This document shows, one piece after another, positions 1,885-22,340 of a DNA stretch of 24,000 bases. Position numbers and translations under genes: made by a program. Numbering within the stretch: the first letter of the stretch is position 1; the number at the start of each line of letters is the position of its first letter. The notes beneath the pieces are model-generated. The model did no database searches and was not told the origin of the DNA. It saw nothing but the letters and a program-made list of their open reading frames with translations. The stretch lies in NCBI GenBank assembly GCA_001904745.1, contig MRCD01000119.1, positions 1,749 to 25,748 of the forward strand, given 5' to 3'. Source of the DNA: Calothrix sp. HK-06 (GTDB lineage Bacteria; Cyanobacteriota; Cyanobacteriia; Cyanobacteriales; Nostocaceae).

Positions 1885-2277
1885 ATGGGATGTAAAGTAA
1901 TCCACACACGTTCGAGCTTATCTCAACGTTATGGAGTGACGACGACAGCGATGAAACTTTGGTATTCACCTGCGGGGGTGATACCACCAAGAAAGAAAGG
2001 AGGGTACTTTAATCACAAAGAGGTAGAGATGTTGGATTATTTTTATTTGGCAACACGTTTTTGTAAGCTGACCTTTAGGGAGTATGAAAGTAAAGTGTTG
2101 CCGATGGGTGGATTAGCAAAATATGTTTTATATGCAATTGAGGTGACGTTAAAAGATTTTTTGCTTAATCCTGAGTATGTAGACCAAGAAGATGTTGTAG
2201 TTAAAGATATTTTGAGGAGATTAGAGAATGATGCTTCATATCAATCAAGTGGTTTCAGAGTTGAGAGTGCAGCGTGA
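1885..2277 (+). CDS. hypothetical protein, possible HTH DNA-binding protein (first gene of operon)
   Basis: 130-aa ORF. The segment SSLSQRYGVTTTAMKLWY looks like a helix-turn-helix. Weak RBS. Confidence 0.45.
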   Translation: MGCKVIHTRSSLSQRYGVTTTAMKLWYSPAGVIPPRKKGGYFNHKEVEMLDYFYLATRFCKLTFREYESKVLPMGGLAKYVLYAIEVTLKDFLLNPEYVDQEDVVVKDILRRLENDASYQSSGFRVESAA

Positions 2278-2851
2278 TGAGATTGTTTCGGCTTGCACTT
2301 TATTAGAATTAAAAGTTGATGGAGACCAATTATCACCTGACACGGTTAGCGTTCTCAACAATGTGAAAGCGGTTGCCGATAAGGGAAATATTAGTTTTTT
2401 GGAAGCAGCACAGCATGTAGCTAATATGAAAAATGGTGAGGGTAGCGCGCAGCAAAGCAATAGGTTTAGCAAGCGTGAGTATATCAAGCAGCGTTTTGGA
2501 GTTGACCCAGAAGCTGCGGCGCCAGGTAGTTTTATATGGATGCTTTATCAAGATGTCAATATTCAATCTGAGCAATTGGGTGAAGTGAGGTATCAGACAG
2601 TAATTGAAGCTTCATCGCATGTACTTCGCGATAGATTGATGAATGGAAATCCTGAAGAAGCGAATAACGAAGGGTTTGAGCAAGCGAATAGTCGTGTGTC
2701 GGAGAATATTACAAGTTTTTTGGGAAACGTCAATTGGGGGGAGTTGCCACAGTTGATGGGGTCATCGACACAACCTACCAAACAGTTGCAAGCGGCGCCT
2801 GCATCGACATCGAAGACTCCTACATCAGCGAAGAAGTCATCAGACAAGTGA
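2228..2851 (+). CDS. hypothetical protein (207 aa), S/T/K-rich C-terminus
   Basis: GGAG lies 8 nt upstream of the ATGATG start. The stop overlaps the next start (TGATG at 2849-2853). Confidence 0.55.
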   Translation: MMLHINQVVSELRVQRDEIVSACTLLELKVDGDQLSPDTVSVLNNVKAVADKGNISFLEAAQHVANMKNGEGSAQQSNRFSKREYIKQRFGVDPEAAAPGSFIWMLYQDVNIQSEQLGEVRYQTVIEASSHVLRDRLMNGNPEEANNEGFEQANSRVSENITSFLGNVNWGELPQLMGSSTQPTKQLQAAPASTSKTPTSAKKSSDK

Positions 2852-3117
2852 TGCCGGAAATTGTTGAGCATCGCAATCAAGCTTTATCACAATTACATCT
2901 AAGTATTGTTTCTGGTTGCCTTGTTCAAACAATATCAACGTTATTAGGAGTGGCGGCTGGTTGGTATACGGTGCAGCCGCCAGTACCTGAGAAGGTTGTA
3001 ATCAAAGATGTTTTCCCGGTAGTGTCGGGTGGATTGTGGGGTGCAGGATTAGGGTTTGCGTTGGCATTAATTGTTGTTAATCGTAAGTTGAGGGAATTAA
3101 AAGATGGCAGGTTTTGA
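2851..3117 (+). CDS. small two-TM membrane protein (88 aa)
   Basis: ATG at 2851 overlaps the upstream TGA. Hydrophobic segments LVQTISTLLGVAAGWY and GGLWGAGLGFALALIVV. The tracked start at 2734 would overlap the previous gene by 118 nt. Confidence 0.55.
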   Translation: MPEIVEHRNQALSQLHLSIVSGCLVQTISTLLGVAAGWYTVQPPVPEKVVIKDVFPVVSGGLWGAGLGFALALIVVNRKLRELKDGRF

Positions 3118-3331
3118 TTTTCTTGTTAATGCAGTGACTGGTTTGGCGGCAAATTCACTGATTAATAGCTTGGTGGGTATTGCGACTGGTGTAGGCGCCG
3201 CTATTGCTTTGCATCCTGTGCTTATTGCAAGTGGAGTGATTGTTGGGGGGACAGCGATAGCTACAATGCGTTCCCTAATAAAAAAATATGAGCGCCCAGT
3301 GTTGGAAGTTATTCAGGGAGGGTTAGAGTAA
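3104..3331 (+). CDS. small hydrophobic membrane protein (75 aa)
   Basis: Gly/Ala/Ile-rich, with two predicted TM helices. The stop overlaps the next start (TAATG at 3329-3333). Confidence 0.6.
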   Translation: MAGFDFLVNAVTGLAANSLINSLVGIATGVGAAIALHPVLIASGVIVGGTAIATMRSLIKKYERPVLEVIQGGLE

Positions 3332-4224
3332 TGGTGCCTAATAAAAAAAAGACCGACTTATTGGGTGTGCTTGATGGCAAGAAGATAAAAAAAATCAATC
3401 CACTTGTACTGACTTCTATTGTTGGTTCACTGTTTACGCTTGTTGCGGTTTTGATGGTATTGAAAGTTTCTGCTGATAAGCGTAACGAATTAGCTAGCGT
3501 GAATAGCCTTTCGTCTCAGTCGGCGCAGGTAGTACAAGCTCGCGAGAATTTCTTGACAACACGCAAAGCCTACGTTGAAAAGTTAAACCGAACTGATTAT
3601 TCGACAAACATAAGGACTAACATTAACTCTGCCAGTGGTGAAGGAGTTCAAACAGGGTGGCGCCAATTAGCAGGTGCAAAATGGTCACAAGATATAAAAT
3701 CGGATTTGAGTAATTTACGGAACGACCCCAAACATCCTTTATATCGGACGGGTGAAACACCAGCACTAGAAGTTTTGAAACTTCAAACACTTGGTACATT
3801 ATCTGAAATTGCAGCAGGTAATACGACCTTCTATGTTGGATACGTCAAAACAGATGGCACAAAAGTCGAGCAAAAACTTTCAACTGGCGCCGCTGCTTAC
3901 TTAACGCTGGGTAAATTGGAAGCAATTGATTTGGCTAATACTTTGGAATCGATACCTGAAGTTAATTTTTCGTTGATGTTGAATGACATTGGAAAAGTCA
4001 ACGAGTCGTATGTATTAGCGCTGCGTGGTTATTTGCAAGCACAAGGGTACAAAGACCCAGTAGACCAATTAGGTGATGCAAGGAAGACGGCTGATGAAAT
4101 TCAGCTTTTACAGGATTTGAAAAATCAAAAGTTGCGTGATATCCAACAGCCATCACAACCACAAGGCATTCAAAAGTTTGCACCTGAACCACGACCTGTA
4201 ATAAGGAGGAATCAAAATGATTGA
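3331..4224 (+). CDS. N-terminally anchored hypothetical protein (297 aa)
   Basis: GGGAGGG RBS upstream. Single TM segment (LVLTSIVGSLFTLVAVLMVL) followed by a soluble domain. Confidence 0.65.
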   Translation: MVPNKKKTDLLGVLDGKKIKKINPLVLTSIVGSLFTLVAVLMVLKVSADKRNELASVNSLSSQSAQVVQARENFLTTRKAYVEKLNRTDYSTNIRTNINSASGEGVQTGWRQLAGAKWSQDIKSDLSNLRNDPKHPLYRTGETPALEVLKLQTLGTLSEIAAGNTTFYVGYVKTDGTKVEQKLSTGAAAYLTLGKLEAIDLANTLESIPEVNFSLMLNDIGKVNESYVLALRGYLQAQGYKDPVDQLGDARKTADEIQLLQDLKNQKLRDIQQPSQPQGIQKFAPEPRPVIRRNQND

Positions 4225-4717
4225 TGTTTTGATGCGTCCATCAATTGTTTTAAAGTTGTTTGGCGCCACTATTTTTGCAGGATTGTCTTTATATAATCTC
4301 GTGTCTTCGAGCGACCAAGTGTTGATTCGGTCAGCTAATTCAAATAGTTCACGCACTGAGGTACGGGTATTTGAATCTCCTAGCCGCAATTTAAATTTGA
4401 TTAGTGGCATAGCATTTGGGGCGGTATCTATTGGATTAATTTATTTTGGTTTGAAGGAATACAACAATGTGGTAGAGGAGTTAGGGGATATTGAATGTGC
4501 TATGCAGCAAGAGGAAGACCACCCCCAATTACAACAGCCAGTGCAGCAACAAATTGTACAACCACAGCCATCTGCACCACATGTTGTACAACCATCGGTT
4601 GAGTTGGGTAACAAACCATATTTAAGGTTAGTACCACCAATTACGGCTGATGGTACATCACTGACTCCGCCTTCGGATTTTATGGAAGATATGGAAGCGA
4701 AAGATTTTTGGGAATAA
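4217..4717 (+). CDS. membrane protein with Q/P-rich linker (166 aa)
   Basis: AAGGAGG RBS. Two TM segments, then QQPVQQQIVQPQPSAPHVVQP. 8-nt overlap with the upstream gene. Confidence 0.6.
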   Translation: MIDVLMRPSIVLKLFGATIFAGLSLYNLVSSSDQVLIRSANSNSSRTEVRVFESPSRNLNLISGIAFGAVSIGLIYFGLKEYNNVVEELGDIECAMQQEEDHPQLQQPVQQQIVQPQPSAPHVVQPSVELGNKPYLRLVPPITADGTSLTPPSDFMEDMEAKDFWE

Positions 4718-4745
4718 CGACACAGTTTAAACAAGGAAAATTGGA

Positions 4746-5288
4746 ATGGCACATCGGAATAACGTGAATAATAACGGTAACGGAAAAAATAACGGGTTTG
4801 TCGATGTCGATTATTCAACATCAGGTGCAATAGTACCAGTTTTGAATACGATGTTATCGAACGCAGTTAATCAAAATGCTGCAACTCAAAGAACTTGTGG
4901 TGGTTTACAAACGTATGATGCAGCGCAACCGTTAACGGTTGAACAAGCTTATAGTCAACCTACTGAAGTTCGCTATGTCAATGCTCGAACGATAACCAAG
5001 CCGGCAGTACCAAGTATAGAAATTCCGTACACAGAGGTATGGAAAGCATCAAGGTTACATCCACAAAACCAGTGGAAATACTTTTGGTATCCGTATTACA
5101 CAGTGATGACTTTTGTTTCGTCACCAGTTGGGATATTGATAACAATAGCGTTGATTTTCCTAGGTGGTGTGAATTTTTTACTTAATGGCAGCTATCAAGG
5201 ACCAGGTTATGCGGCTGGAAAGAAAATCGAGGTAATTCCAAAGGAACTGCCAAAGTTCGCGACACCTGTTATAGATACAGTGGAGTAA
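4746..5288 (+). CDS. hypothetical protein with C-terminal TM helix (180 aa)
   Basis: AAGGA RBS. TM segment SPVGILITIALIFLGGVNFLL. TAATG overlap with the next gene. Confidence 0.6.
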   Translation: MAHRNNVNNNGNGKNNGFVDVDYSTSGAIVPVLNTMLSNAVNQNAATQRTCGGLQTYDAAQPLTVEQAYSQPTEVRYVNARTITKPAVPSIEIPYTEVWKASRLHPQNQWKYFWYPYYTVMTFVSSPVGILITIALIFLGGVNFLLNGSYQGPGYAAGKKIEVIPKELPKFATPVIDTVE

Positions 5289-5599
5289 TGATTATGTGGA
5301 GTAGATTGACTTTCTGGAGTGTTTTTGCGGCATTTATTTTGAATATTTTGCAACCAGGGTACATGCAATTTTATGACGTGCGTAAACCAATGCTTGCTCT
5401 TTTAACTAATTTGAAAGTGCCAGCGACTAAGGAAGCAAACCAATCTCAAGAAAATGCGGCTAAAACACCTGAGTCAAGTTCTACTCCACCACCAACTCCC
5501 TCACCAACTCCTAAATCTACGTGTCAACCACCAAAGAATGATTACGACCGAATACTTTTCGCGCAAGGAATAGGAGAATGTAATGCGTCTGGTGATTGA
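5288..5599 (+). CDS. small membrane protein with P/T/S-rich tail (103 aa)
   Basis: N-terminal TM (FWSVFAAFILNIL), then SSSTPPPTPSPTPKS. Coupled on both sides. Confidence 0.55.
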   Translation: MIMWSRLTFWSVFAAFILNILQPGYMQFYDVRKPMLALLTNLKVPATKEANQSQENAAKTPESSSTPPPTPSPTPKSTCQPPKNDYDRILFAQGIGECNASGD

Positions 5600-6449
5600 T
5601 TTAAGTCGTACTCATAACGATAATGATGAATTGGTTGTTGATAATCAGTTAGTAGATACGGATGATACTGATGTTGAAGATAGTAGCGGTAAATGGTTGT
5701 TGCCACTTTTAACCTGTGGTTTAGCGATTGCGATTGTGGTTAGACCAGTATCCGAGTTAGTTAAAACGGCGCCACCCGTTGTTTGGCTACAAAGTCAAGT
5801 TGGTACATTAACATCCACGTCTAATCAGCAAACTTCAATAGTTGCTAATCGTTTATATGCGGCAATGCAGCGTAAAGGCTATCCAATAGCTAAAGGTAAG
5901 GGTGAAACTAACATTATTTATGTACGTGGTGGGGATATTAACGGTCAGCCTACAGGTAATCGTATAAATGAATGGTCAGACGCGCGCTTTGTGTTGATGT
6001 TCCGTGGTGGGCAACCATATATTGCGGGGAAGTGGAAAGCGACGATTAAGCCAGGGCTTCCTGCAATTAGGAATCCATTAGGTAAGCGTGGTGCGGCGTT
6101 TATTGAGGATGGTTACTACAAAGCATGGCGCCTGGGTATTCATCAAGGGATATTTGGAAGAAGAGAGCGTGGTTTGGTGCAAGTGGCGCCAGTAAACTTT
6201 CGTCGTGATGTTAATCGTGATGGAAATGTATCGGGCGAGCCAGTACAAAATGGAATGATTGGGCTTAACCAGCATTCTGGTAGTAATAATAGAGAGGTTG
6301 ATAAAACTTCATATGCCTGTCTGGTAGCACAGTCAAGTGAAGGTCACTTAGAGGAATTTGTACCATTACTTGAAAACGACCCTCGTTACAAAACGAATTC
6401 GCAGCATATGTTTGGGACTGCGATATTAAGTATTGGCAACTTACGATGA
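5583..6449 (+). CDS. membrane-anchored putative cell-wall-active enzyme (YkuD-like His...Cys signature)
   Basis: Short N-terminus (MRLVIDL...) plus a TM helix, then a domain ending in GLNQHSG-x10-SYACLV. This resembles the H...S-x-G-C catalytic pattern of L,D-transpeptidase-fold proteins. The family assignment is tentative. Confidence 0.6.
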   Translation: MRLVIDLSRTHNDNDELVVDNQLVDTDDTDVEDSSGKWLLPLLTCGLAIAIVVRPVSELVKTAPPVVWLQSQVGTLTSTSNQQTSIVANRLYAAMQRKGYPIAKGKGETNIIYVRGGDINGQPTGNRINEWSDARFVLMFRGGQPYIAGKWKATIKPGLPAIRNPLGKRGAAFIEDGYYKAWRLGIHQGIFGRRERGLVQVAPVNFRRDVNRDGNVSGEPVQNGMIGLNQHSGSNNREVDKTSYACLVAQSSEGHLEEFVPLLENDPRYKTNSQHMFGTAILSIGNLR

Positions 6450-7078
6450 AATTAGTAGTCGATTTTGAAGGTGGTAGTAACCCACGTCCGAAACGGGGTA
6501 AAAAGCAATCGAGTGGTAAATTAGGTGATGCCAATTGGCAGACAGCAGTATTAACGGGATTGATGGTTGCTGGAATAGTAGTTCCTCAATTTTCAGCAAC
6601 ATTGAAAGGGATTTTTGCTTTATCTGATAGCGCAGTAGAAACAACAGAAATCAATACTGGCTCGGAATCTGTTAAGTTTCGACTACCTGTAGCAAAGGGT
6701 GTATCTACTACATCAGAGTATGGGTGGCGTACTCACCCAATTACAGGGCAACGTAAGTTTCATGCAGGTCTTGATTTTGGTGCGGCGTATGGACAACCTA
6801 TTTATGCAGCGGCGCCGGGAGTAGTCACCTTTGCTGGAGAGAAAGGTGGATACGGCAATACTGTAGAGGTTAAGCATAATAATCGCGAATCAACATTATA
6901 TGGACATGCAAGTAAATTGATGGTGAGTGTTGGGCAACGAGTAGCACAAGGGCAGGTAATTGCACTTGTTGGTAGTACAGGATTTTCAACGGGTCCACAT
7001 TTACATTTTGAAGTGCATATCAACGGGCAACATACTAATCCCCGACCATTTTTAGGTAATCAAATAGCAGGTAGGTAA
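6446..7078 (+). CDS. membrane-anchored M23 family metallopeptidase
   Basis: HAGLDFGAAYGQPIYAAAPGVV...GYGNTVEVKH...GSTGFSTGPHLHFEVHING carries the HxxxD and HxH motifs of M23/LytM peptidases. N-terminus MKLVVDF... plus a TM helix. ATGA overlap with the upstream gene. Confidence 0.9.
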   Translation: MKLVVDFEGGSNPRPKRGKKQSSGKLGDANWQTAVLTGLMVAGIVVPQFSATLKGIFALSDSAVETTEINTGSESVKFRLPVAKGVSTTSEYGWRTHPITGQRKFHAGLDFGAAYGQPIYAAAPGVVTFAGEKGGYGNTVEVKHNNRESTLYGHASKLMVSVGQRVAQGQVIALVGSTGFSTGPHLHFEVHINGQHTNPRPFLGNQIAGR

Positions 7079-7079
7079 T

Positions 7080-8045
7080 ATGGTTGAGAAATTAGTACTA
7101 GGAGGAATAGCTGGGAGCGTAATAGGTGTTGGTATTGCGTATGGTTTTGCGTCATTACCATGTGGTTTAGTTTCAAAACCTGCGGATAAAGTATGCTACG
7201 TGCGCGCGTTTAATAAATCATTAGATGCGTGGAAGATTGGGTGTTTGGGTGGGGTAATAATTGGGTTAACACTTAGTAATAGTAATAAGCAGCGTCGATT
7301 TAAGTTTCAGCCCATGCATTTATCAATAGTAGGTATTTTGGTATTAGTAGGGGCTGTTGCAGCTAATAATAAATCGCTTGGATTTGGAATTACTAATACA
7401 CAATCACTGTTTCAACTTAATAACACTAACAATTTATCTCCTAGAATGAGCGCATTTCTTGCCACGATAAGATGGGCAGAAACGGGTACAAGTGATAAGT
7501 CGAGTTATAATAAATTAGTGTTTAATGGCACTTTTAATGATTTTTCGGCTCACCCTAAGATTAAACAATGCGCTCCAATAAATGGAAAACGTGTTTGTTC
7601 AACTGCTGCTGGTGCTTATCAAATGTTAGATATATCTTGGAATGATGTGGCGCCAAAATTAGGGTTGAAAGATTTTACTCCACCTTCGCAGGATAAAATG
7701 GCAATTGAATATATTCGCCGTAATAAAGCTATAGATGATGTGGAGTCAGGAAATATTGAAATGGCATTTTGTAAGGTAGGAAAGGTATGGGCTAGTTTGA
7801 TTTGTAATAATTATAATCAAAATCCATGGACTACAGAGGAGTTAAAAAATTACTATAATAAACAATTAATTGCTGCGGGTGGTGAGCCAGTCAGCGGTAA
7901 GTCCAGTTGGCGGGAATGGTTTTCTTTCCGGAAAGCTCGCCACGGGGAGTACTCCCTGTGGCAGACTTTCCGCCAAACTGGCGAACCCCAAAGGGGTGGA
8001 AGCTTCTTTCCCGTTGGACTGGCGAACCCAAAGGGAGGTAATTAA
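7080..8045 (+). CDS. membrane-anchored lambda-R-type lytic transglycosylase (GH104-like); 3' end may be an artefactual extension
   Basis: FLATIRWAETGT...YNKLVFNGTFNDFSAHP...STAAGAYQMLDISWNDVAPKLGLKDFTPPSQDKMAIEYI...VWASL aligns motif-for-motif with phage lambda R (FLDMLAWSEGT...DYSDHP...STGAGRYQLL...LGLKDFSPKSQD...IWASL). Three N-terminal TM segments. The last 53 or so codons translate the GC-rich element at 7880-8040. Confidence 0.88.
   Translation: MVEKLVLGGIAGSVIGVGIAYGFASLPCGLVSKPADKVCYVRAFNKSLDAWKIGCLGGVIIGLTLSNSNKQRRFKFQPMHLSIVGILVLVGAVAANNKSLGFGITNTQSLFQLNNTNNLSPRMSAFLATIRWAETGTSDKSSYNKLVFNGTFNDFSAHPKIKQCAPINGKRVCSTAAGAYQMLDISWNDVAPKLGLKDFTPPSQDKMAIEYIRRNKAIDDVESGNIEMAFCKVGKVWASLICNNYNQNPWTTEELKNYYNKQLIAAGGEPVSGKSSWREWFSFRKARHGEYSLWQTFRQTGEPQRGGSFFPVGLANPKGGN
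7880..8040 (+). other. GC-rich, highly structured element at the lysozyme/FtsK gene junction
   Basis: Nested hairpin: GGAAAG(7930-7935)/CTTTCC(7966-7971) encloses GCCACGGGGAG-TA-CTCCCTGTGGC (7939-7962). The outer arms are CCAGTTGGCGG(7903-7913)/CCGCCAAACTGG(7970-7981). A competing CTTTCC sits at 7924-7929. Direct repeats ACTGGCGAACCC(C)AAAGGG at 7977-7996 and 8018-8035. Two forward frames stay open across the element. Confidence 0.5.
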
Positions 8046-8047
8046 TT

Positions 8048-10216
8048 ATGGATAGCAATTCATTAATACTTTATGTTAATAACGCGCGCGCTGCTGGGTA
8101 TTCAAGTCAGCAAATAATTGAAACAGTTGAAGCAACTGGTAATATTGCCGCTACATCATATGTTAGTAGTTTAGTTCAGCAACTTGAGTTTCGTGATAAG
8201 CTTTGCCGAACTACGATTAAGTATGACCAGAACTTTTTATATGAAAGTGTATACATTGCAGTGCTTTCGGGCATGGCTAATGATGATATCCTTCATACTT
8301 GTGGAGAATATTGTGATGTAGAAGATTATGCTTTTTGTAAGTTAGCTTTGCGCCATATTTTAGTCCATCGTGTGCCAAGCGAAGCGGAAATAGCAGTGTT
8401 TTTGATGGATTTAAAAAATAAATTTACTCAAATTGATAGCGTATTTAATTTAATTAAAGAAACAATTAATGAACACTATTTATCATTAATACGTAAAGCA
8501 TTTTTAGAGTGGTATATATATCCAGCATTTGTACAAGGTCAAGATATTAATTTCTTTTTATCGCTTGCTGATAAATGTGGTGATATTAGAATTGCTGATT
8601 ATTGTCGGCGTACTGCTGACAAAATATCAATACAAAAGCATGGCATTCGGTTAGATTTAAATGTATCTGGAAGTTTGGCTTCATTAACTGTTGATGAAAA
8701 TACGGTTCCTGTTGCCGAAATTCAGGCAAATCCAAATCAACCTTCAATTGACGAAGCAGGCAAGTTACTAGTTGAGGTACTAAAAGATTTTAAAATTGAA
8801 GCCGAGTTGGTTGGCGCCGTTAGTGGTCCAACGTTTAATCGTATCGAAGTTAAGCTTGGTCGTGGAGTTAAATTCGGCAGCGTCGCGAATTTTAGTGACG
8901 ACTTGATGCAGCAACTCGGTGATGAGTTGGGTATTGACAAGGCGCCGATGATTAGCAGTATTAAAGGTCGGACGGCTTTTGATATACCTAAATTTAACCG
9001 TAAAACTGCTTATTTTAAAGATTATGCTGATTTTGATACCCAAATTGATATTCAAAAAATATTGATACCTGGTGGCATTGATGTAAATGGTCAATACTAC
9101 AAAATCAACTTTTGTGATGACAATTCGCCGCATATGATGGGTGGTGGTCGTACTCGCAGTGGCAAGTCCCAGTTTTTAAAAAGTGGGATTATGTACTTGG
9201 CTCGACGTTATCCTCCGTCTGTAGTACGTATGGTGCTATCTGATGTAAAGCGTGTTACATTTGGTAAATTTAAGAATTTGCCGCACTTAATAGGCGACGT
9301 TTGTAAAGATGCCAAATCTACGGCTGATATGTTGGATTTTTTGGTAGCGGAAATGGAATTACGCTATCAGGAGTTTGAGCGATGGGAGCATAGTGGTATT
9401 GAAAACATAAACCAATATAATAAATTGCATTTTGATAATCATGTAATGCCTCGTATTATTTGTTGGATAGATGAAATATCTGAATTATTGAGTGACGAGG
9501 GCTATAGTGCGCGTATAGAAAAGTCACTTGCTTCGTTGTTACGTAAAGCTGGAGCTGCGGGTATACATGTTGGTGCGTACACACAGCGACCTGATGCTGG
9601 CGCATTAAAACCACAGATTCGGTCAAACTTTCCTGCAAAAACAGCGTTTGCAGTTGCGAGGCCAGAGGATAGTAAAATAATTTTAGGCGACCCCAATGAT
9701 GAGCGTGCTAAAGATTTGTTAGGTAGAGGTGATTTTATATTGCGTACTCCTGAAGTTGATGTACGGTTGCAGGCTTTGTACCTCGACGATGCGGATGATA
9801 TTGAGTATTTTAATCAAATAACGGAGGAAATAATAAATGCTACTGACCCATATACAGCATGGGATTCAGGGTTGAGTTTTGATGAATTTATTGAACAACT
9901 GTATTTGAATCAGGATACCACTGACCCTCATGCTGTTGATAGGATTGTCACCAATAATCAAATCAAAAATGGGAAAAACAAAACTAATTTTAATTCATCA
10001 TTTCAATTTAGTGTGGAATTAGATGCTCGTGCTAAGGACACAATAGAGACGTTATGGCGCCGGGGGTATAATGCAAATCAAATTACGGCTGAGGTGTTTG
10101 GTAAGTCAAAGGGAGGACGTGACGGTGATAGGAAATTTGAGAAAAATAAGAAGGTGGTAGAAAAATATATTTCTGATTTGAGTACCAATAAGGGTGAGGT
10201 GGACGATGATATATGA
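8048..10216 (+). CDS. FtsK/SpoIIIE-family DNA translocase (TraB/Tra-like)
   Basis: GPTFNRIEVKLGRGVKF, Walker A PHMMGGGRTRSGKSQ, VRMVLSDVKRVTF...LPHLIGDV...EMELRY, Walker B ICWIDEISELL, and AGIHVGAYTQRPDAG...IRSNFPAKTAFAV...DSKIILG...LLGRGDFIL all follow the FtsK motor-domain pattern. No obvious N-terminal TM region. GGGAGG RBS. Confidence 0.9.
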   Translation: MDSNSLILYVNNARAAGYSSQQIIETVEATGNIAATSYVSSLVQQLEFRDKLCRTTIKYDQNFLYESVYIAVLSGMANDDILHTCGEYCDVEDYAFCKLALRHILVHRVPSEAEIAVFLMDLKNKFTQIDSVFNLIKETINEHYLSLIRKAFLEWYIYPAFVQGQDINFFLSLADKCGDIRIADYCRRTADKISIQKHGIRLDLNVSGSLASLTVDENTVPVAEIQANPNQPSIDEAGKLLVEVLKDFKIEAELVGAVSGPTFNRIEVKLGRGVKFGSVANFSDDLMQQLGDELGIDKAPMISSIKGRTAFDIPKFNRKTAYFKDYADFDTQIDIQKILIPGGIDVNGQYYKINFCDDNSPHMMGGGRTRSGKSQFLKSGIMYLARRYPPSVVRMVLSDVKRVTFGKFKNLPHLIGDVCKDAKSTADMLDFLVAEMELRYQEFERWEHSGIENINQYNKLHFDNHVMPRIICWIDEISELLSDEGYSARIEKSLASLLRKAGAAGIHVGAYTQRPDAGALKPQIRSNFPAKTAFAVARPEDSKIILGDPNDERAKDLLGRGDFILRTPEVDVRLQALYLDDADDIEYFNQITEEIINATDPYTAWDSGLSFDEFIEQLYLNQDTTDPHAVDRIVTNNQIKNGKNKTNFNSSFQFSVELDARAKDTIETLWRRGYNANQITAEVFGKSKGGRDGDRKFEKNKKVVEKYISDLSTNKGEVDDDI

Positions 10217-10682
10217 TTTGATAATGCCTTTACCTCCAACAATGAACGAAATCATCGAAAGCGCGCGTTCGGGGTGGCAAATAAATGCTGCACTAAAAAA
10301 GAAGTGGACTAATTTGATTGGCGCCTTTGTGACTGAGTGCGATTTTGAATTATTGGGTGTGGTGTGGATTGAATTCCATTGGCATTTAAAGAATTATGGG
10401 CGCGATGCAGATAATGTTGCAGCGGCAGCTAAGTTTATTATGGATGGTCTGCAACAAGGTCGGGCGATAAAAAACGATAATCTTACAATTATCCAATCTC
10501 CTGTACCTCATTATTATCATCGTAGCGAAGGTGATGATGGGGTGAAGGTTAGATTGTCTGATACACCAGATTTTTTGTTAGAAAGCTTTATTGATGCGAA
10601 TCAATACTCAAACATTGCTTTAAGTCAACTAAGTAAAAAAATAAGTAAAATCTTGGGAATAGATTCATTCAATGGAGTTTGA
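10206..10682 (+). CDS. rusA: RusA-like Holliday-junction resolvase
   Basis: MIYDLIMPLPPTMNEI... and GRDADNVAAAAKFIMDGLQQGRAIKNDN parallel E. coli RusA (LPWPPSNN... [25 protein letters not shown]). The ATG at 10206 lies inside the last codons of the FtsK-like gene, which ends at 10216. Confidence 0.72.
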   Translation: MIYDLIMPLPPTMNEIIESARSGWQINAALKKKWTNLIGAFVTECDFELLGVVWIEFHWHLKNYGRDADNVAAAAKFIMDGLQQGRAIKNDNLTIIQSPVPHYYHRSEGDDGVKVRLSDTPDFLLESFIDANQYSNIALSQLSKKISKILGIDSFNGV

Positions 10683-10709
10683 TGTATGATTAAATTAAGT
10701 GAGTAAGCG

Positions 10710-10916
10710 ATGGCTATAGCAGTATTTGTAGTAATGTGTCTTCTGTATATATCTCAAGCATGGAGCAGGCGTAATATATTAGATATAGCGAATGCAATTC
10801 TTGCGGCTGTTATTGCGGGATATTATTTTAAAATGGCAGGATTTGTAATTTATTTATGTATCAACATTCTGCTATTTAAGTTTGAGGATTTACGAGCGAG
10901 AAATAGATTTAGATAA
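10710..10916 (+). CDS. small two-TM membrane protein (68 aa)
   Basis: Hydrophobic ORF in operon orientation. Weak RBS. Confidence 0.45.
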   Translation: MAIAVFVVMCLLYISQAWSRRNILDIANAILAAVIAGYYFKMAGFVIYLCINILLFKFEDLRARNRFR

Positions 10917-10928
10917 TTTGAGGAGGTA

Positions 10929-11123
10929 ATGATAACGCCCTTTATATTGGGTAATCATGAAATGAAGAATGGAGCGGTTACTGCTACCTATGTTGATAAG
11001 GAAGGTAGACCAACTCAAAAATTGGGAGAAGCAAAGGTATTCGATGCTCGTAGTGATGCAGAAATGTATGCTGTTCAGAAAGACATTGAAGCAAACGTAA
11101 TTATAGTGAAAGGAGAAAAGTAA
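10929..11123 (+). CDS. small soluble hypothetical protein (64 aa)
   Basis: GAGGAGG RBS directly upstream. TAATG overlap with the next gene. Confidence 0.55.
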   Translation: MITPFILGNHEMKNGAVTATYVDKEGRPTQKLGEAKVFDARSDAEMYAVQKDIEANVIIVKGEK

Positions 11124-11833
11124 TGACAGTGTGTAATGTCGTATTTAAGAGAACTCCCAAGTACGAAGAGATTCTGGATAAGTTGATGGGTGGAGCTAAT
11201 GTATATTTACAAGGCGCCACATGTACAGGTAAAAGCACGCTTGTTAGAGAGTTACAGTTCGATTTGGAGACAAGATATGTTTATGTGAGTGTACCAAGGG
11301 ATGCAAATTACTCAGTTTTATATAAAGTTTGTGAGAGTATAGCTGCACAACTGAATATTGAAGTTGAGTCTAAGTGTGTGGGTGGGGTTTCACCCGAAGG
11401 TACGTTACAAGCAATTAAACAGCTTGAGGAAAGAGTACTGTTTGTATTTGACGAAGTTGGCAATATTCAAAATTGCCACCCAGATGCGATAAAAGGAATA
11501 AACAAGTGGCTGCATGATTTATCTATGGTAGATGGTTGTCAAGTTGTGGTGGCATCTCAGACTACATTGGATAAGGCTTTGCCTCATTTCTTTGCTAATA
11601 AAAGTTGGCGAAATGTATTTGACATAGTTAGTTTAGACGATGTGAGTGCGGATTGCGAAAGTGTTGATATAAAATTAGCAATGCAGCAATGGATGAAACG
11701 GGAGTTATTAAAGGGTAAATATACAGAGTCTTTCCTGAAATTAATATCGATGGGTATTAATGGTGAACTAGAGTTACTCGATGCCATTCGTGCTGCAAGT
11801 TCGGTTGAATATTACAATATTAATGTGAGGTAA
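11123..11833 (+). CDS. P-loop (AAA-type) ATPase
   Basis: Walker A GATCTGKST and Walker B-like VLFVFDEVG. 236 aa. GGAGAAAAG RBS. Confidence 0.7.
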   Translation: MTVCNVVFKRTPKYEEILDKLMGGANVYLQGATCTGKSTLVRELQFDLETRYVYVSVPRDANYSVLYKVCESIAAQLNIEVESKCVGGVSPEGTLQAIKQLEERVLFVFDEVGNIQNCHPDAIKGINKWLHDLSMVDGCQVVVASQTTLDKALPHFFANKSWRNVFDIVSLDDVSADCESVDIKLAMQQWMKRELLKGKYTESFLKLISMGINGELELLDAIRAASSVEYYNINVR

Positions 11834-11837
11834 TAAA

Positions 11838-12323
11838 ATGAATACTCAAATGTTAAATATTAGTGGAGCAATTGAGGATGTGGTAAATGGTGGTTTATTA
11901 TCATCTGATGAAATAACATCGTTATCTACAAGCTTGAAAAGGTTATCAGTAAACTTGAAAAATTGTGGTGAATCGCGAGAAGCAGCATCGTTCATGAATG
12001 ATGAGCAGGAATTATATAGTATATCAATTGCAGTAGCTGAATTAGTACGTGGTAATCAGGATTTGACTGATACAGTGTGGAGTATACTTTGCTGGTTACA
12101 TCAAAGTATGGGTGCTTTGGTATATCTAAAATTTCAATTGGAGGAGGTGATAAGGCATGATTTGAATGAGGTGCCGATTAGTAAAATTATGCCATTCATC
12201 GAATTGAAGATAGCTGATTTATTCAATGAGGATAGGCATTATAAACAAGCAGTGCGTTATTTGCGTGTACTGAATGATTTTTTGATTGAACAAGGAGTAC
12301 AGCAATGGAAAAAGTTATATTGA
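11838..12323 (+). CDS. hypothetical protein (161 aa)
   Basis: GTGAGG RBS. Operon context. No recognisable motif. Confidence 0.55.
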   Translation: MNTQMLNISGAIEDVVNGGLLSSDEITSLSTSLKRLSVNLKNCGESREAASFMNDEQELYSISIAVAELVRGNQDLTDTVWSILCWLHQSMGALVYLKFQLEEVIRHDLNEVPISKIMPFIELKIADLFNEDRHYKQAVRYLRVLNDFLIEQGVQQWKKLY

Positions 12324-12511
12324 TGGATGGTAGAGAGCAGTATTTGGGTAATTATGAAGGGTTTCCAATTGCAGTAACTCAAACAAACAATGGTGAAGGC
12401 TATTCTGCTTGGAAATATGGTGATAACGAAGCGACAACAGGACATGAAAACGCTGAAGTAGCATTGAAGAGTGTAAAAACAGAAATTGACGAATTATTAG
12501 TTAACCAATAG
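12305..12511 (+). CDS. small hypothetical protein (68 aa), last gene of operon
   Basis: Overlaps the upstream gene by 19 nt. Acidic, soluble. Confidence 0.5.
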   Translation: MEKVILMDGREQYLGNYEGFPIAVTQTNNGEGYSAWKYGDNEATTGHENAEVALKSVKTEIDELLVNQ

Positions 12512-12607
12512 TGGTAATCCAATTGGTGGACGTGTCTTGAAAACTTTTGTGCGAGGAAACCTCGACACACAAAGTTTCCGCTAGCAAGTTCGATTCTTGC
12601 TACCACT
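12510..12607 (+). ncRNA. tRNA-like element (aberrant tRNA-Phe(GAA)-like with a 20-nt insertion)
   Basis: 7-bp acceptor AGTGGTA(12510-12516)/TACCACT(12601-12607). Canonical T-arm GCAAG-TTCGATT-CTTGC (12584-12600). D-arm-like TCC-AATTGGT-GGA. GTGTC(12532-12536)/GACAC(12564-12568) stem with loop start TTGAAAA (anticodon GAA at 12539-12541), followed by the 20-nt insert 12544-12563, which contains a CGAGG-AAA-CCTCG hairpin. 15-nt variable region. No encoded CCA. Confidence 0.45.
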
Positions 12608-12786
12608 CTTGGAAATTGTGCGACTTGGATTCACTGAAAATTAATAGTACTTTACCAATTAATTATGAGTAAAAGTCAAATTAAAAGAGTATGTGATGGA
12701 TGGTCGCCGTTTCCATTTCCCTTCTAAATGCTGAGGCGTGAGTAATTGAATTAATTATTTATTTTGCAATCACATTTGGAGGAATT

Positions 12787-14073
12787 ATGTCGAAGAAACA
12801 ATCTAAGCTAGAAAGTTTGATTTTTGCTGTTGGTATTTCGTCAATTACAGCAATTGCTCTTGGTTGTGTTGGGTTTTACGGCGCCCTTAGCAATGGTCTT
12901 GTCAGTATGCGTAGTGCGGGAGAAAAGTTGCCAACACCAGATGCAAAAGTTTGGAATATTGGTAAATTTTCTTATAACGCGATTATTGCTGGCTTTGGGG
13001 GTGTTGGAATTGCAGTTGCTTCTGCTTATGTTGCTGGCAACTCTGCTGCCAATAAAGAGTACAAGCAAAAACGAATCGAAAGTTCTCAACGTCCACAGGA
13101 CAAAATTTCCTATATCCCTTCAGTGATAAATCATGAAGAGGAGCGAATCAACGTAGTTGAGGATACTAGAAAATTACACATGTTTCATTTTATCAAGAAT
13201 GAACAAATTGCTAGTGACGGAAAATTAATTGTTTTAGGCGATGTTACTTCTGGAGCAGCGTATATTGCGATTGTTAGTGATGAGCAGGCTAGTTTATTAA
13301 TGGAGTTATTTGATTGTGTTGGTGATGATGAGCTAATCGGGAAAGCTTTTACGTCATACTTTGTGACTGCGGAAGTTGCATTAATAGATTTTGTAGAAAG
13401 GCATACTAAATGTAAGCCTGCCATTGAAGAAGGATACACACTTGCCGATTTTGATTACTGCGTTGGGTGTATAAATCTTTGTTCTAAAAATTCTGTTATC
13501 TGTCCTTTACATGAGGAAGGGTGGTATGGCGAAGGTAATTGCCCTGATAGACAAGTTATTGATGGCTATCCAATGGCGCCATATGAAGACCAGGCTGTGA
13601 TTCGCGATTTAAACAAACGCATTGAATATAGCGGCGCATCGATTAATATTATCGATGACGGAACTATTATGCTTTGGGATGATATTACCAACAGACGTTT
13701 TGAGTTTGATTGGTTCGGTAAACGCCAACTACTGAGTGATTATCTTGACCAACTATTAAGTAACTTTGAAGCGTATATCGAGTATTACTCTAAACGTGAT
13801 AGAAGTTTTTTTACTGATTACAGTGCTTGTATAGACGAGCTAGCAGAGTCTCTAAAAGGGATTGGTTGCCTTCAGATTTGTGGTAAACAAAAAGATATCT
13901 ATCTAACTTTGTATAGAAACAAAGATTTGGGTATTAAGTTTGTGACACATGAATTTAATAGATACGGATTTCCAAAATATCCTTATCAGCGTAGGGCGCC
14001 TGTGGTTTTAAAGCCTGACCTGCTTACTTTTATCAACTACTTAGGTAAAAGCAAATCAAATCAAAAAGTGTGA
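12787..14073 (+). CDS. membrane-anchored hypothetical protein with a Cys-rich segment (428 aa)
   Basis: GGAGGA RBS. N-terminal TM helices. CVGCINLCSKNSVICPLHEEGWYGEGNCP suggests a metal-binding cluster. Confidence 0.65.
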   Translation: MSKKQSKLESLIFAVGISSITAIALGCVGFYGALSNGLVSMRSAGEKLPTPDAKVWNIGKFSYNAIIAGFGGVGIAVASAYVAGNSAANKEYKQKRIESSQRPQDKISYIPSVINHEEERINVVEDTRKLHMFHFIKNEQIASDGKLIVLGDVTSGAAYIAIVSDEQASLLMELFDCVGDDELIGKAFTSYFVTAEVALIDFVERHTKCKPAIEEGYTLADFDYCVGCINLCSKNSVICPLHEEGWYGEGNCPDRQVIDGYPMAPYEDQAVIRDLNKRIEYSGASINIIDDGTIMLWDDITNRRFEFDWFGKRQLLSDYLDQLLSNFEAYIEYYSKRDRSFFTDYSACIDELAESLKGIGCLQICGKQKDIYLTLYRNKDLGIKFVTHEFNRYGFPKYPYQRRAPVVLKPDLLTFINYLGKSKSNQKV

Positions 14074-14181: not shown

Positions 14182-14205
14182 CAGTACATTTATTTGGAGA
14201 CGACC

Positions 14206-14697
14206 ATGTTTAATCTTTTTACCTCAAACGCATTTGAAGTTGCACCTGCAATACAAACAATTAACGATATTCTTTTTCCTTGCGTTTTGTTTGGGATGAT
14301 ATTTATGTTTCTGTGTGTAATTTTCTTTGATAGTTCTTCAGTATTGAGTGATGAAGAGAATGTTGTCGCACAAAGTACTGAAATTTTAGCGGAAGCTATA
14401 GAAACTATAGTGCCTGAAGATTACCTTGAACAACAGCTTGCCTCAATGGTAGCTGTTATGGAACAGTATTCTCAACCCAAAGTAGAAGCAAAAGTCGATT
14501 TATTCGATGTGGAACCAGAAATCAAAAAATTGCGTACATTTGGCGCTCGTTCGCTGAAAGCATATTGTAAAGAGCATAAAATCAAAGGGTATTCAACAGC
14601 AGCTAATGCTGGAGTGGAATCTCTTGCTAAGTTTATGTTGGCACAACAGGTAAAAGCGTGCGATGTTCAAAGTTTTAGGTCGAAGTTTGTTGCTTAA
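14206..14697 (+). CDS. hypothetical protein with N-terminal TM helix and a SAP/HeH-like C-terminus
   Basis: ATG at 14206 with GGAG 7 nt upstream (the tracked start at 14194 is a TTG). The C-terminus LRTFGARSLKAYCKEHKIKGYSTAANAGVESLAKFM resembles a helix-extension-helix DNA-binding motif. Confidence 0.55.
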   Translation: MFNLFTSNAFEVAPAIQTINDILFPCVLFGMIFMFLCVIFFDSSSVLSDEENVVAQSTEILAEAIETIVPEDYLEQQLASMVAVMEQYSQPKVEAKVDLFDVEPEIKKLRTFGARSLKAYCKEHKIKGYSTAANAGVESLAKFMLAQQVKACDVQSFRSKFVA

Positions 14698-15418: not shown

Positions 15419-15710
15419 AATTGTCATTGCCGCATAAGAAACTCGACTTCCAGCCCAGTTCTTCAAGCAATTTTATGCGCCAAGGCAAATAATCACCAAT
15501 ACATACCAATATATCATGGATAATCCCGTTTGTGTTCATTTATCTTTTGGCGTATATAAATACGTTAATAATTGTATCCATAGATTGTTATTGATAACGA
15601 TTATTATTCGTTTATCGTTGAAAAATGTTGTACATATTTGCTTAAAGTTCCTAACGGTAGAACTTTTCTCCTTTTTAACTAAAAGTAATAGGAGAATATT
15701 GTCAACGACT

Positions 15711-15964
15711 CAGCCCTGAAGGGACTGAAGCTCTTCAGCAACAGCTTGAAGTTTCAAACTTTCAGGTAAAGGAGACCAGACTCAGCACCCGCTACGTTCG
15801 TGGCAAAGTTAAAGAACCTACCTTGGAGTGCGTAGCTAGCTCCAAGCTCTAGAAACAAAAAGTTAAACATGCCTATCTGAGTTATATTGCAAGTGCTTTT
15901 GTATAGTACTGACCACGAACATTGTCAAAGCTAACATCACCCGTTTTACGGAGTTTTTCAAATC
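15711..15964 (+). ncRNA. candidate IscB omega RNA scaffold (5' boundary uncertain)
   Basis: Non-coding, locally structured region abutting the iscB start, which is where omega RNAs are encoded. Local hairpins: CCCT-ga-AGGG, CTGAAG-ct-CTTCAG, GAAGTTT/AAACTTTC and CTTGGAG(15822-15828)/CTCCAAG(15840-15846). Long-range pair: GTTCGTGG(15796-15803)/CCACGAAC(15913-15920). Confidence 0.5.
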
Positions 15965-17239
15965 ATGTCCAATTACGTTTTTGTCATTGATACAAACAAA
16001 AAACCTTGTAACCCGGTTCACCCAGCAGTTGCGAGAAAATTATTAAAGGAGAAGCAAGCCGCTGTATTTAGACGATTCCCGTTTACCTTGATTCTTAAAA
16101 TCAAGTTAACTGAACCAACACGAGAAATTCAACTCAAAATTGACCCTGGTTCTAAAACAACAGGGATTGCTTTAACTCAAGGTTCTTACGTTATTTGGGG
16201 AGCCGAACTTACACATCGAGGTGGAATAATAAAAGACGCATTACAATCACGCCGTTCGTTACGTCGTAGTAGAAGAAACCGTCATACTCGGTATCGTCAA
16301 CCTAAGTTTTTAAATCGAACAAGACGTGATGATTGGTTAGCACCAAGTTTGCAACATCGAGTTGAAACAACTATTACATGGGTAAACAAGTTAATCAAAT
16401 TTGTACCAATTACTGGAATATCTCAAGAGTTAGTTAGATTTGATTTGCAACAAATTGAGAATCCGGAAATATCAGGAACTGAGTATCAGCAAGGAGAGTT
16501 AGTAGGTTACGAAGTTCGTGAGTATCTACTTAACAAGTGGGATAGAAAATGTAGTTATTGTGGGATACAAAATGTTCCATTACAAATCGAGCATATTCGC
16601 TGCATAGCCAAGGGGGGTACGAATCGAATATCTAATCTATGTTTAGCCTGCGAGTCTTGCAATCTTAAAAAGGGAACACAAGACATTGAAGATTTCTTAG
16701 TTAAGAAGCCTCTTGTATTGAAACAAATTTTATCTCAGGCGAAAAGACCATTAAAAGATGCAGCAGCAGTGAATTCGACTCGATGGGCATTGTTTAATCG
16801 ACTCAAAAAAACAGGATTACTAGTTACTACTGGTTCTGGAGGACTAACTAAGTTTAATCGAACTCGCTTAAATTTAGAAAAAACTCATTGGCTAGATGCC
16901 GCCTGTGTTGGAAAAGTAGACACCTTGAAAGTTTTAACTAAAAAGCCACTAATAATTAAATCAACTGGACACGGAACGAGGCAACAATGTAGAACTGATA
17001 AATTTGGCTTTCCGAGTAGATACTGTTCTATAAACAAGTTTCATTTTGGTTTTCAAACTGGCGATATCGTTAAGGCAATAGTTAAAACAGGCAAAAAAAT
17101 CGGAAATTATATTGGTCGAATTGCAACACGTTCAACAGGTAGTTTTAACATTTCAACTAGTAATGGATTAGTTCAAGGTATTTCTCATAAATACTGTAAA
17201 GCTATCCATAAAAAAGACGGTTACAACTACTCAAATTGA
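15965..17239 (+). CDS. iscB: IscB (RuvC-HNH, OMEGA-type RNA-guided nuclease), apparently intact
   Basis: N-terminal PLMP-like VFVIDTNKKPCNPVHPAVARKLLKEKQAAVFRRFPFTLIL. RuvC-I KIDPGSKTTGIAL (D60). Arg-rich bridge helix RRSLRRSRRNRHTRYR. RuvC-II ISQELVRFD (E155). HNH CSYCG...LQIEHI...NLCLACESCNLKKG. RuvC-III THWLDAACVG (H308/D311). C-terminal GFQTGDIVKA...GRIATRSTGSF barrel. Confidence 0.92.
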   Translation: MSNYVFVIDTNKKPCNPVHPAVARKLLKEKQAAVFRRFPFTLILKIKLTEPTREIQLKIDPGSKTTGIALTQGSYVIWGAELTHRGGIIKDALQSRRSLRRSRRNRHTRYRQPKFLNRTRRDDWLAPSLQHRVETTITWVNKLIKFVPITGISQELVRFDLQQIENPEISGTEYQQGELVGYEVREYLLNKWDRKCSYCGIQNVPLQIEHIRCIAKGGTNRISNLCLACESCNLKKGTQDIEDFLVKKPLVLKQILSQAKRPLKDAAAVNSTRWALFNRLKKTGLLVTTGSGGLTKFNRTRLNLEKTHWLDAACVGKVDTLKVLTKKPLIIKSTGHGTRQQCRTDKFGFPSRYCSINKFHFGFQTGDIVKAIVKTGKKIGNYIGRIATRSTGSFNISTSNGLVQGISHKYCKAIHKKDGYNYSN

Positions 17240-17326
17240 TAAAGACTCAAACAGGTTAAAACCTGTTTGGTCGCTTCCCTCTCAGTACGCTCCGTGACTG
17301 AGGAAACTCGCATACCAGGTAATGTT

Positions 17327-22188: not shown

Positions 22189-22340
22189 TGAAATAGGCGC
22201 CCTTGTTTAATGTAACAGCGTTATTCAAAAATCCTCATGCTGCGGTATGAGCAATTTACTGTGCTGACTTTTTATCCTCATATGTCACTTTACCCTGTAA
22301 CTATACCCAAAAGTTTTCTGGGCATGGAAGCATAAGTGTA

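Follow-up and report, generated by a model that had tools for sequence, protein, structure and literature searches.

We analyzed a 24,000-nucleotide (nt) stretch of DNA from the cyanobacterium Calothrix sp. HK-06 (contig MRCD01000119.1, positions 1,749 to 25,748 of the forward strand), hereafter called the window; coordinates refer to it unless another locus is named. At positions 1885-12511, the list of open reading frames (ORFs) holds 18-19 co-directional genes on the + strand, most of which overlap or abut, with gaps from gene to gene of -50, -1, -14, -1, -8, +28, -1, -17, -4, +1, +2, -11, +27, +12, -1, +4 and -19 nt. About 19 coupled genes in one direction had been described in an initial annotation of this DNA, and the ORFs and gaps bear this out. 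The only ORF of more than 330 amino acids (aa) in this interval is an FtsK-like gene. The contig that carries the window measures only 26 kb, and the window DNA is 85-91% identical to megaplasmids of Calothrix NIES-4105 and PCC 7716. The operon is a conserved module of Nostocales mobile elements, centered on an FtsK-type motor.

A scan of one genome per species recovered 56 loci with the module, nearly all in Nostocales, the host genera including Nostoc, Calothrix, Scytonema, Tolypothrix, Fortiea, Komarekiella, Brasilonema, Aulosira and Desmonostoc. One Hydrococcus assembly and one Chroococcales metagenome-assembled genome were the outliers. A protein search added Rivularia, Richelia, Dulcicalothrix, Iningainema, Hassallia and Hapalosiphon. 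Across clades whose proteins share 25-67% identity, the order of the core genes is constant. It begins with two soluble proteins of 130 and 207 aa, two tiny membrane proteins and proteins of about 280, 160, 170 and 90 aa, and it continues with a wall-hydrolase slot, a lysozyme-like slot, the motor, usually a RusA-like nuclease, and proteins of about 428 and 140-170 aa. Since the last two genes, which lie beyond the operon, belong to this order, the module reaches to about position 14700. Single loci are designated below by L numbers.

The FtsK-type motor and its operon partners

The motor gene (8048-10216, + strand) encodes a 722-aa protein of the FtsK/SpoIIIE type with alpha and beta domains, as judged from Pfam, NCBIfam, PDB, hydropathy and phmmer. 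It matched the Pfam families FtsK_SpoIIIE (E 3.4e-21) and FtsK_alpha (E 1.1e-9), its nearest solved structure is FtsK 2IUS (E 9e-35), and the ATPase motifs, namely Walker A (GRTRSGKS), Walker B (IDE) and TQRP, are all present. Pfam, the PDB match and the motifs thus agree with the bona fide FtsK/SpoIIIE motor first announced for this position. The protein is 100% identical to NIES2101_36970. Hydropathy gave no transmembrane (TM) segment, and Pfam detected neither the four-TM (4TM) anchor PF13491 nor the gamma domain PF09397. Its N-terminal domain, about 225 aa long, is specific to the family, and its C-terminal tail is conserved.

We placed the motor by ranking phmmer scores of its motor domain against reference proteins, a ranking that is not a full phylogeny. 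Scores were 425-597 bits within its own family, 200-240 bits with orphan FtsK-like proteins, 150 bits with an FtsK-like protein of an actinomycete (Prauserella) plasmid, 110-146 bits with gamma-domain FtsK proteins plus a Tsukamurella FtsK, 71 bits with TcpA of pCW3 and 13 bits with Tra of pIJ101. The Tsukamurella protein, listed under 'Tsukamurella plasmid 15', is of the housekeeping type by its neighboring genes and served as a chromosomal FtsK reference. Clustering with TcpA or type IV coupling proteins (T4CPs) had been named in advance as evidence that would speak against a TraB-like system; by these scores, the motor lies nearer to chromosomal FtsK than to TcpA. At 50% identity, the motor family accounts for only four clusters among 1.84 billion protein representatives, and beyond it the score drops from 381 to about 230 bits, the level of single-domain proteins. 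The gamma domain was missing from 38 of the 40 nearest outgroups and the 4TM region from 39. The NCBIfam models gave 114 bits for FtsK, 87 for EssC, 60 for EccC and 34 for plasmid_TraB, the cut-off of the last being 800. Judging from sequence scores, the motor may work like a TraB rather than being one. A match on a Pseudanabaena PCC 7367 plasmid was set aside; it has the motor alone in common, in a different gene context.

The EssC and EccC scores raise the question of whether the FtsK-like ATPase powers protein secretion or antagonism, as in type VII systems, or the module serves in anti-phage defense. Matches of the motor to the FtsK-like part of the defense proteins SspH and mad8 point the same way, as do several small soluble proteins in the operon. 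However, the EssC/EccC matches are partial and far under their cut-offs, and FtsK scores above EssC. EssC/EccC proteins combine two TM segments with three FtsK-like ATPase domains, whereas the motor has a single ATPase domain and no TM or FHA region; instead, it possesses the FtsK alpha domain and is coupled to a nuclease. The PADLOC matches reflect the shared ATPase domain only, and no other gene of the operon was matched. We therefore regard a secretion or defense role as very improbable.

The gene of this RusA-like nuclease (10194-10682, + strand) overlaps the end of the motor gene, and its product matched phrog_1682 (E 4e-17). An hhalign comparison with E. coli RusA gave a probability of 64% and E 6.5e-5, with the PPxxN and RDxDN motifs aligned; these motifs are invariant within the RusA-like family of the module. 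Neither the Pfam RusA model nor a PDB profile search matched the protein, a putative resolvase like the one named in the initial annotation. It is the best conserved protein of the module, with about 67% identity to the Nostoc type, and its gene is missing from four chromosomal elements (L061, L062, L064 and L069).

Upstream of the motor, all on the + strand, lie genes for three membrane-anchored proteins related to cell-wall enzymes, the number originally claimed. The clearest is a 210-aa M23 peptidoglycan endopeptidase (6446-7078; Pfam PF01551, E 4.5e-36). Its slot is core, and in L061, L062, L064 and L065 an NlpC/P60 domain takes its place. The slot persists although the catalytic domain in it changes, which argues for wall cutting as the function under selection. 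The lysozyme- or lytic-transglycosylase-like protein of 321 aa (7080-8045) matched phrog_90, an endolysin family (E 3e-34), and phrog_17230 (E 2e-25). It was found by jackhmmer in 55 loci and is core in the plasmid clades; the 241-aa protein that occupies this slot in the Rivularia type has no detectable homology to it. The third protein, endolysin-like and 288 aa long (5583-6449), matched phrog_3000 (E 3e-26) and phrog_33083 'endolysin' (E 1e-11). Because it had no Pfam or PDB match, it is the weakest call of the three. With tblastn matches in 6 loci and full-length homologues in few clades, it is accessory. The NlpC/P60 form was linked by jackhmmer to both the M23 and the 288-aa proteins, probably through an N-terminal anchor that the three forms share.

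In relatives, mobile DNA repeatedly sits just upstream of the motor gene, within or beside the gene of the lysozyme slot (L001 11565-13867; L004 13746-14891; L016 7951-9177; L065 7941-9159; L061/L063/L064 about 7700-9442). The inserts comprise an ISKra4-like insertion sequence, a LAGLIDADG protein, TnpB genes and a group II intron, the last at the identical site in all three copies of Calothrix parasitica.

Most of the remaining core genes encode membrane proteins. Hydropathy found TM segments in nine operon proteins and a hydrophobic N terminus just under the threshold in a tenth (5288-5599), in line with the at least nine small or single-pass membrane proteins originally counted. All the core genes described here lie on the + strand. 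The first (1885-2277) encodes a soluble 130-aa protein found in 52 loci, including chromosomal elements; its N terminus is weakly helix-turn-helix (HTH)-like, with just weak homeodomain matches (E 0.14) in the PDB profile search. It is followed by a soluble protein of 207 aa with a Ser/Thr/Lys-rich tail (2228-2851; 54 loci), to which Pfam, NCBIfam and the PDB profile search gave no match. Two small membrane proteins come next, one of 88 aa from its ATG with two TM segments by hydropathy (2851-3117, its start taken from the AP018291 annotation; 52 loci by jackhmmer) and one that is Gly/Ala-rich, of 75 aa (3104-3331; 54 loci, no family match). The 297-aa protein (3331-4224; 55 loci) is bitopic, with an N-terminal TM segment and a mostly helical outer part; it had no PDB profile match. 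It is succeeded by a 166-aa membrane protein with a Gln/Pro-rich tail (4217-4717; 54 loci, hydropathy), a 180-aa protein with a C-terminal TM segment and about 50% identity to the Nostoc type (4746-5288; 54 loci), and the tenth protein mentioned above, which has 103 aa, a Pro/Thr-rich linker and homologues in 55 loci.

Beyond the operon, the 428-aa protein (12787-14073; 47 loci, including chromosomal elements) begins with two TM segments at its N terminus, and its cytoplasmic region has four cysteines that never vary (C-x2-C...C...C-P-D). The protein may be the membrane partner of the TM-less motor. Its PDB profile search was empty, and the Foldseek matches to PDB were noise. The last gene common to plasmid and chromosomal forms encodes a 167-aa protein with one TM segment (14194-14697; 49 loci). 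AlphaFold2 (AF2) models of the 297-aa and 428-aa proteins, built from shallow alignments, had predicted local distance difference test (pLDDT) scores of 48.5 and 48, respectively, and were unusable; NCBIfam gave only noise for the proteins without an assigned family.

Between the nuclease gene and the end of the operon lies an accessory block found mostly in the Calothrix clade (10710-12511, + strand) encoding proteins of 68 aa (two TM segments), 64 aa, 236 aa (P-loop), 161 aa and 68 aa, each found in 1-4 loci. The 236-aa P-loop protein (11123-11833) gave weak Pfam matches to NACHT, AAA_22 and TniB (E 3e-6 to 5e-4), which agrees with the P-loop ATPase of the initial annotation. Together with the 288-aa hydrolase and four small ORFs, however, it is mostly confined to the Calothrix clade and stands outside the core.

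Mobility context and type IV secretion

The module occurs in two forms. The chromosomal form was found in Rivularia PCC 7116, in Calothrix parasitica NIES-267 (three copies in one chromosome) and on a large metagenomic contig. It is a compact core block with an HSDR_N-like gene and a tyrosine integrase gene at its end. In Rivularia (L062) the integrase gene abuts tRNA-Phe, and L069 has the same layout. The homology between Rivularia and C. parasitica ends exactly 43 nt into the tRNA-Phe 3' end, and one C. parasitica copy (L061) carries these 43 nt without the remaining tRNA. We therefore take this as the signature of integration at a tRNA gene. Beside the module, a protein of about 545 aa was assigned to Pfam Alr2735/Alr2735_N at three chromosomal or contig loci (L062 218-1855; L069 1-1242; L067 18535-20157). 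This match was precomputed, and a fresh Pfam scan did not reproduce it; the protein may be cargo or a part of the element.

An integrase at a tRNA gene, together with PHROG matches to endolysins, RusA-like nucleases and phage FtsK-like proteins, would also suit a remnant or core of a virus-like or vesicle element, with holin-like or structural membrane proteins, endolysins and an FtsK-like DNA loader. The name 'phage terminase large subunit family protein', given by RefSeq/PGAP to homologues of the 297-aa protein (L001 7799-8641; L004 9984-10826; P0122; P0126), would fit as well. However, Pfam, NCBIfam and PHROGs lend this name no support, and it is probably a misannotation. Furthermore, Pfam and PHROGs revealed no capsid, portal, terminase, tail or double-jelly-roll candidate, no relative was present among 2.9 million IMG/VR contigs, and the hydrolases are membrane-anchored rather than soluble. 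We consider a viral or vesicle origin quite improbable.

The window represents the plasmid form, and no integrase was found in it. In this form the module adjoins a ParB-like gene and large unclassified genes, possibly for replication. The homologue of the motor in PCC 7120 is All7666, encoded on pCC7120beta (L001 13923-16100), where the operon lies at roughly 166-180 kb. Because of its operon context, all7666 is a mobile-element gene. This corrects the literature: a cell-division study (PMC9426583), a morphogenesis review (PMC7766704) and a porin study (PMC9705863) cite All7666 as the (putative) FtsK of the Anabaena divisome.

RusA-type enzymes resolve recombination intermediates, and on plasmids the module stands directly beside the ParB-like and presumed replication genes. 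Hence, the module might be a maintenance device whose pump and RusA-like resolvase clear or resolve element copies at the closing septum, with no DNA passing between cells. The treatment of All7666 as a putative divisome FtsK (PMC7766704, PMC9426583) counts in favor of this, as does the fact that, in three model cyanobacteria, the FtsK/SpoIIIE candidates on the chromosome are classed as YjgR proteins of the HerA clade (PMC7766704). Nevertheless, maintenance leaves unexplained why some ten membrane proteins are dedicated to the module and kept in fixed order with two or three wall hydrolases, and why the module is present in integrated elements, which segregate with the chromosome. In addition, the RusA-like gene is missing from several integrated copies, and bacterial two-hybrid assays report no interaction of All7666 with Mre proteins. 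Such a role is improbable in our view.

We then turned to type IV secretion systems (T4SSs). VirB4 is the only ubiquitous T4SS protein, and the MPF_C class is defined by its VirB4 (PMC4027160). Pfam and NCBIfam revealed no VirB4, T4CP or relaxase in the window, and tblastn (1e-3) with VirB4, VirB10 and VirD4 of pCC7120alpha gave no match, neither there nor at about 70 related loci. The lack of VirB4, coupling protein and relaxase, originally asserted for the operon, thus extends to the window and to the 10 kb around those roughly 70 loci.

A replicon free of VirB4, which the initial annotation had implied, is a different matter. When alr7206, the VirB4 gene of the pCC7120alpha MPF_C locus (alr7204-alr7213), was searched against all plasmids, each of the 14 complete plasmids with the module (14/14) also held an MPF_C VirB4. 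These proteins form one clade, 68-70% identical to alr7206, and are encoded roughly 40-100 kb from the module. On pCC7120beta, the plasmid inspected, genes for VirB10 and a VirD4-type T4CP are present in addition to that for VirB4. The replicons of the relatives are therefore not VirB4-free, and the module is a second apparatus on them. Five plasmids have this VirB4 clade but lack the module, and two of these belong to the unicellular Chroococcidiopsis.

This coexistence suggests that the module could be an accessory of the MPF_C T4SS that opens the wall and handles DNA, or that serves as another coupling motor, in either case dependent on VirB4, VirB10 and VirD4 encoded elsewhere. The association of all complete module plasmids with one VirB4 clade and the full set on pCC7120beta favor it. 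So does the precedent of Firmicutes, where FtsK-like coupling proteins exist and TcpA of pCW3 is encoded next to the VirB4-like TcpF. However, the two loci are far apart, and the motor scores lower to TcpA than to FtsK. Three facts speak for a separate module: the T4SS locus has its own VirD4-type T4CP, the VirB4 clade also occurs without the module, and on chromosomal elements the module is accompanied by an integrase but by no T4SS gene within 10 kb. We judge an accessory role unlikely, although it deserves more weight than the alternatives above.

Non-coding elements and flanking genes

The interval that separates the operon from the 428-aa gene holds a tRNA-like minihelix, at positions 12510-12607 and in the orientation of the operon (+ strand). 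In the window, its variable linker and T-arm (GCAAG-TTCGATT-CTTGC, 12584-12600) are closed by an acceptor-like stem of 7 bp (AGTGGTA/TACCACT). The minihelix occupies the same relative position in about 57 plasmid and chromosomal loci of all clades, with a stem of 6-7 bp, a linker of 12-76 nt and a perfect T-arm (GCAAG-TTCGAnT-CTTGC); in the Nostoc type, the linker adds an anticodon-arm-like hairpin. The structure is supported by covariation, since 9 of 12 pairs show compensatory changes and 95.8% of cells pair, a result equaled by 0 of 500 shuffles; in this test the 5' strand was picked by best pairing and the linker was spliced out. Neither ARAGORN nor Rfam called the minihelix. It could be a processing signal for RNase P/Z, a recognition site or a degenerate tRNA, and it was the sole conserved non-coding element found in the search bearing on clt-type sites.

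A second conserved non-coding motif, ACTGAAAATTAA-N-AGTAC (12633-12652), lies about 30-45 nt downstream of the minihelix and recurs in loci of the Calothrix, Nostoc and Dulcicalothrix types. The 428-aa gene may have its promoter or operator here. A promoter and terminator scan gave no signal above shuffles, and the one useful site in it was a strong terminator-like hairpin just upstream of the operon (1514-1535). This hairpin follows a gene for a nuclease-related NERD-domain protein (986-1471, + strand; E 6.5e-13) that is not kept in related loci.

To the right of the module, an IscB-type element (15701-17239, + strand) sits between an HTH gene and the ParB-like gene. It comprises a HEARO/omega RNA (RF02033) at 15701-15940 (96.5 bits against a gathering threshold of 83, E 6e-19) and, directly downstream, a gene for a 424-aa RRXRR+HNH protein (15965-17239; PF14239, E 2e-71). 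It was probably inserted recently, since no more than 3-4 related loci have homologues.

The initial annotation had also spoken of cyanobacterial-plasmid-like replication genes, for which we found no confirmation. A weak ParB_N-like protein (17267-18532) is the sole recognizable product of partition or replication type. In the 1219-aa protein that follows (18529-22188, + strand), the N-terminal part has a Cys-rich motif and the center a Walker-A-like GLGKS. The protein matched nothing in Pfam, NCBIfam or PDB and showed no similarity to the CyRepA1/DUF3854 proteins of pCC7120alpha. Downstream of its gene, iteron-like GGCCACTTTATCYTTTAA repeats (22336-22529) occur in two direct copies and one inverted copy forming a 47-nt imperfect inverted repeat. 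On the right side of the window, matches to other Nostocales plasmids were confined to this stretch; they were to Nostoc ATCC 53789 and to a second plasmid of Calothrix PCC 7716. The stretch may be an origin or partition site.

Proposed function and comparison with known systems

Our preferred interpretation, held tentatively and at somewhat less than an even chance, is that the operon and the 428-aa and 167-aa genes encode a TraB/Spd-like apparatus for the transfer or spreading of double-stranded DNA (dsDNA). The soluble FtsK alpha/beta motor, as a hexamer, would be recruited to the cytoplasmic membrane by the membrane proteins of the module. The anchored hydrolases (M23 or NlpC/P60, plus the lysozyme-like protein) would open the peptidoglycan locally, the motor would pump double-stranded DNA of the element into the neighboring cell, and the RusA-like nuclease would process or resolve it. 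On plasmids with an MPF_C system, the module might serve a second task, for example, spread along the filament after entry. The restriction to Nostocales and the coexistence with T4SSs fit such a division of labor, as in Streptomyces. We infer the transfer itself, its direction, its substrate and the part played by each membrane protein; what was observed is the gene content, its conservation, the mobility context and the lack of T4SS parts in the module.

Several observations support a transfer apparatus. First, a motor of the DNA translocase type is translationally coupled to a RusA-like nuclease. Second, about ten membrane proteins and two or three anchored hydrolases are kept in fixed order across clades. 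Third, the module resides on mobile DNA, in plasmids and in tRNA-Phe elements, and its hosts are nearly all filamentous heterocystous cyanobacteria. The exchange of catalytic domains in the hydrolase slot and the lack of VirB4, T4CP and relaxase in the module and its 10-kb surroundings count in the same direction, as does the presence of the VirB4 clade without the module in unicellular Chroococcidiopsis.

Several points weigh against it. By sequence, the motor falls outside the TraB family, and it has no TM segment, unlike TraB, TcpA and FtsK. Its N-terminal domain and C-terminal tail matched no known family or DNA-binding fold in Pfam or, for the tail, in a PDB profile search. Both AF2 models had a pLDDT of about 48, and any likeness of the membrane proteins to VirB or Spd proteins is conjectural. 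No clusters of clt-like 7-8-mer repeats were present in the intergenic regions flanking the operon. In the integrating elements, we found no Rep-like family (RepSA, RepAM or Prim-Pol) and, within 10-kb flanks, no second att repeat or left end. Finally, as all 14 complete module plasmids carry the MPF_C VirB4, these plasmids need no module to conjugate, and the independence of the module from the T4SS is putative.

We searched the literature and found no description of the module; the initial annotation had held that such gene logic on an AT-rich replicon with cyanobacterial-plasmid-like replication genes would be undescribed. Reviews give only MPF_C for cyanobacteria, the 2025 review of plasmid mobility mentioning no other type for Cyanobacteriota (PMC12282955). 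Transfer by an FtsK-like protein alone was called exclusive to hyphal Actinomycetales in a 2012 review (PMC3429521). A bolder version of our interpretation, which is possible but rather doubtful, would see an FtsK apparatus that drills through septal peptidoglycan and pumps element dsDNA from cell to cell. It would be convergent with Streptomyces TraB/Spd and the first outside Actinomycetales, with the minihelix acting in control or recognition.

If transfer takes place, FtsK-only transfer would extend to a second multicellular lineage, which would point to filament architecture as the selecting factor. Typing schemes based on relaxase and VirB4 are likely to overlook such elements. Indeed, MOB-suite typing in PLSDB labels pIJ101 (L071) 'non-mobilizable', and the same label is attached to the Prauserella plasmid with an FtsK-like gene (L072). 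As PCC 7120 is genetically tractable, the hypothesis is directly testable.

Compared with known systems, the motor is closest to chromosomal FtsK/SpoIIIE, with which it shares the alpha and beta domains and its best sequence and PDB matches. However, it lacks the 4TM anchor and the gamma domain, which reads KOPS, its gene belongs to a mobile-element operon, and it forms a separate Nostocales clade. The MPF_C T4SSs of cyanobacteria have the same hosts as the module and, for the beta-type clade, the same plasmids, but they are encoded at a separate locus and have no protein in common with it (tblastn, 1e-3). The TcpA/Orf21 systems of Firmicutes (MPF_FA; pCW3, Tn916) resemble the module in combining an FtsK-family ATPase, a wall hydrolase and small membrane proteins. 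The tcp locus of pCW3, in contrast, has the adjacent VirB4-like TcpF and the relaxase TcpM, neither of which the module has.

TdtA of Thermus thermophilus is a member of the FtsK/HerA superfamily that is not known to need VirB4 or a relaxase, and transjugation in Thermus relies on the competence machinery of the recipient. To our knowledge, no operon of membrane proteins and hydrolases of the present kind has been described for the Thermus system. The likeness to the module, which is one of function, consists in ATPase-driven DNA donation encoded on an integrating element, ICETh1 (PMC5365140).

The actinomycete systems offer the most extensive parallel. Spreading of Streptomyces plasmids needs a peptidoglycan-binding membrane complex that TraB forms with Spd proteins, and TraB mediates the transfer (PMC4447253). 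Actinomycete integrative and conjugative elements (AICEs) integrate through a tyrosine or serine recombinase, often at a tRNA 3' end (PMC3429521). Like the TraB/Spd plasmids and AICEs (pSVH1, pIJ101, pSAM2), the module has a single FtsK-like motor, small membrane proteins and neither VirB4 nor relaxase. Its integrating form, too, has a tyrosine integrase at a tRNA 3' end, its hosts are filamentous and multicellular, and peptidoglycan is involved. The actinomycete logic proposed in the initial annotation is thus upheld in the motor, the small membrane proteins and the integrase/tRNA-Phe layout, and it falls short on the TraB-family score. Unlike the TraB systems, in which the motor is a TM protein of the TraB family, the module has no clt repeats or rolling-circle Rep that we could find, lives in a diderm cyanobacterium and, in its plasmid forms, coexists with a T4SS. 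Moreover, it possesses dedicated wall hydrolases, a RusA-like nuclease and accessory proteins that match no known family. The apparatus would stem from a different FtsK lineage than TraB and work with unrelated accessory proteins.

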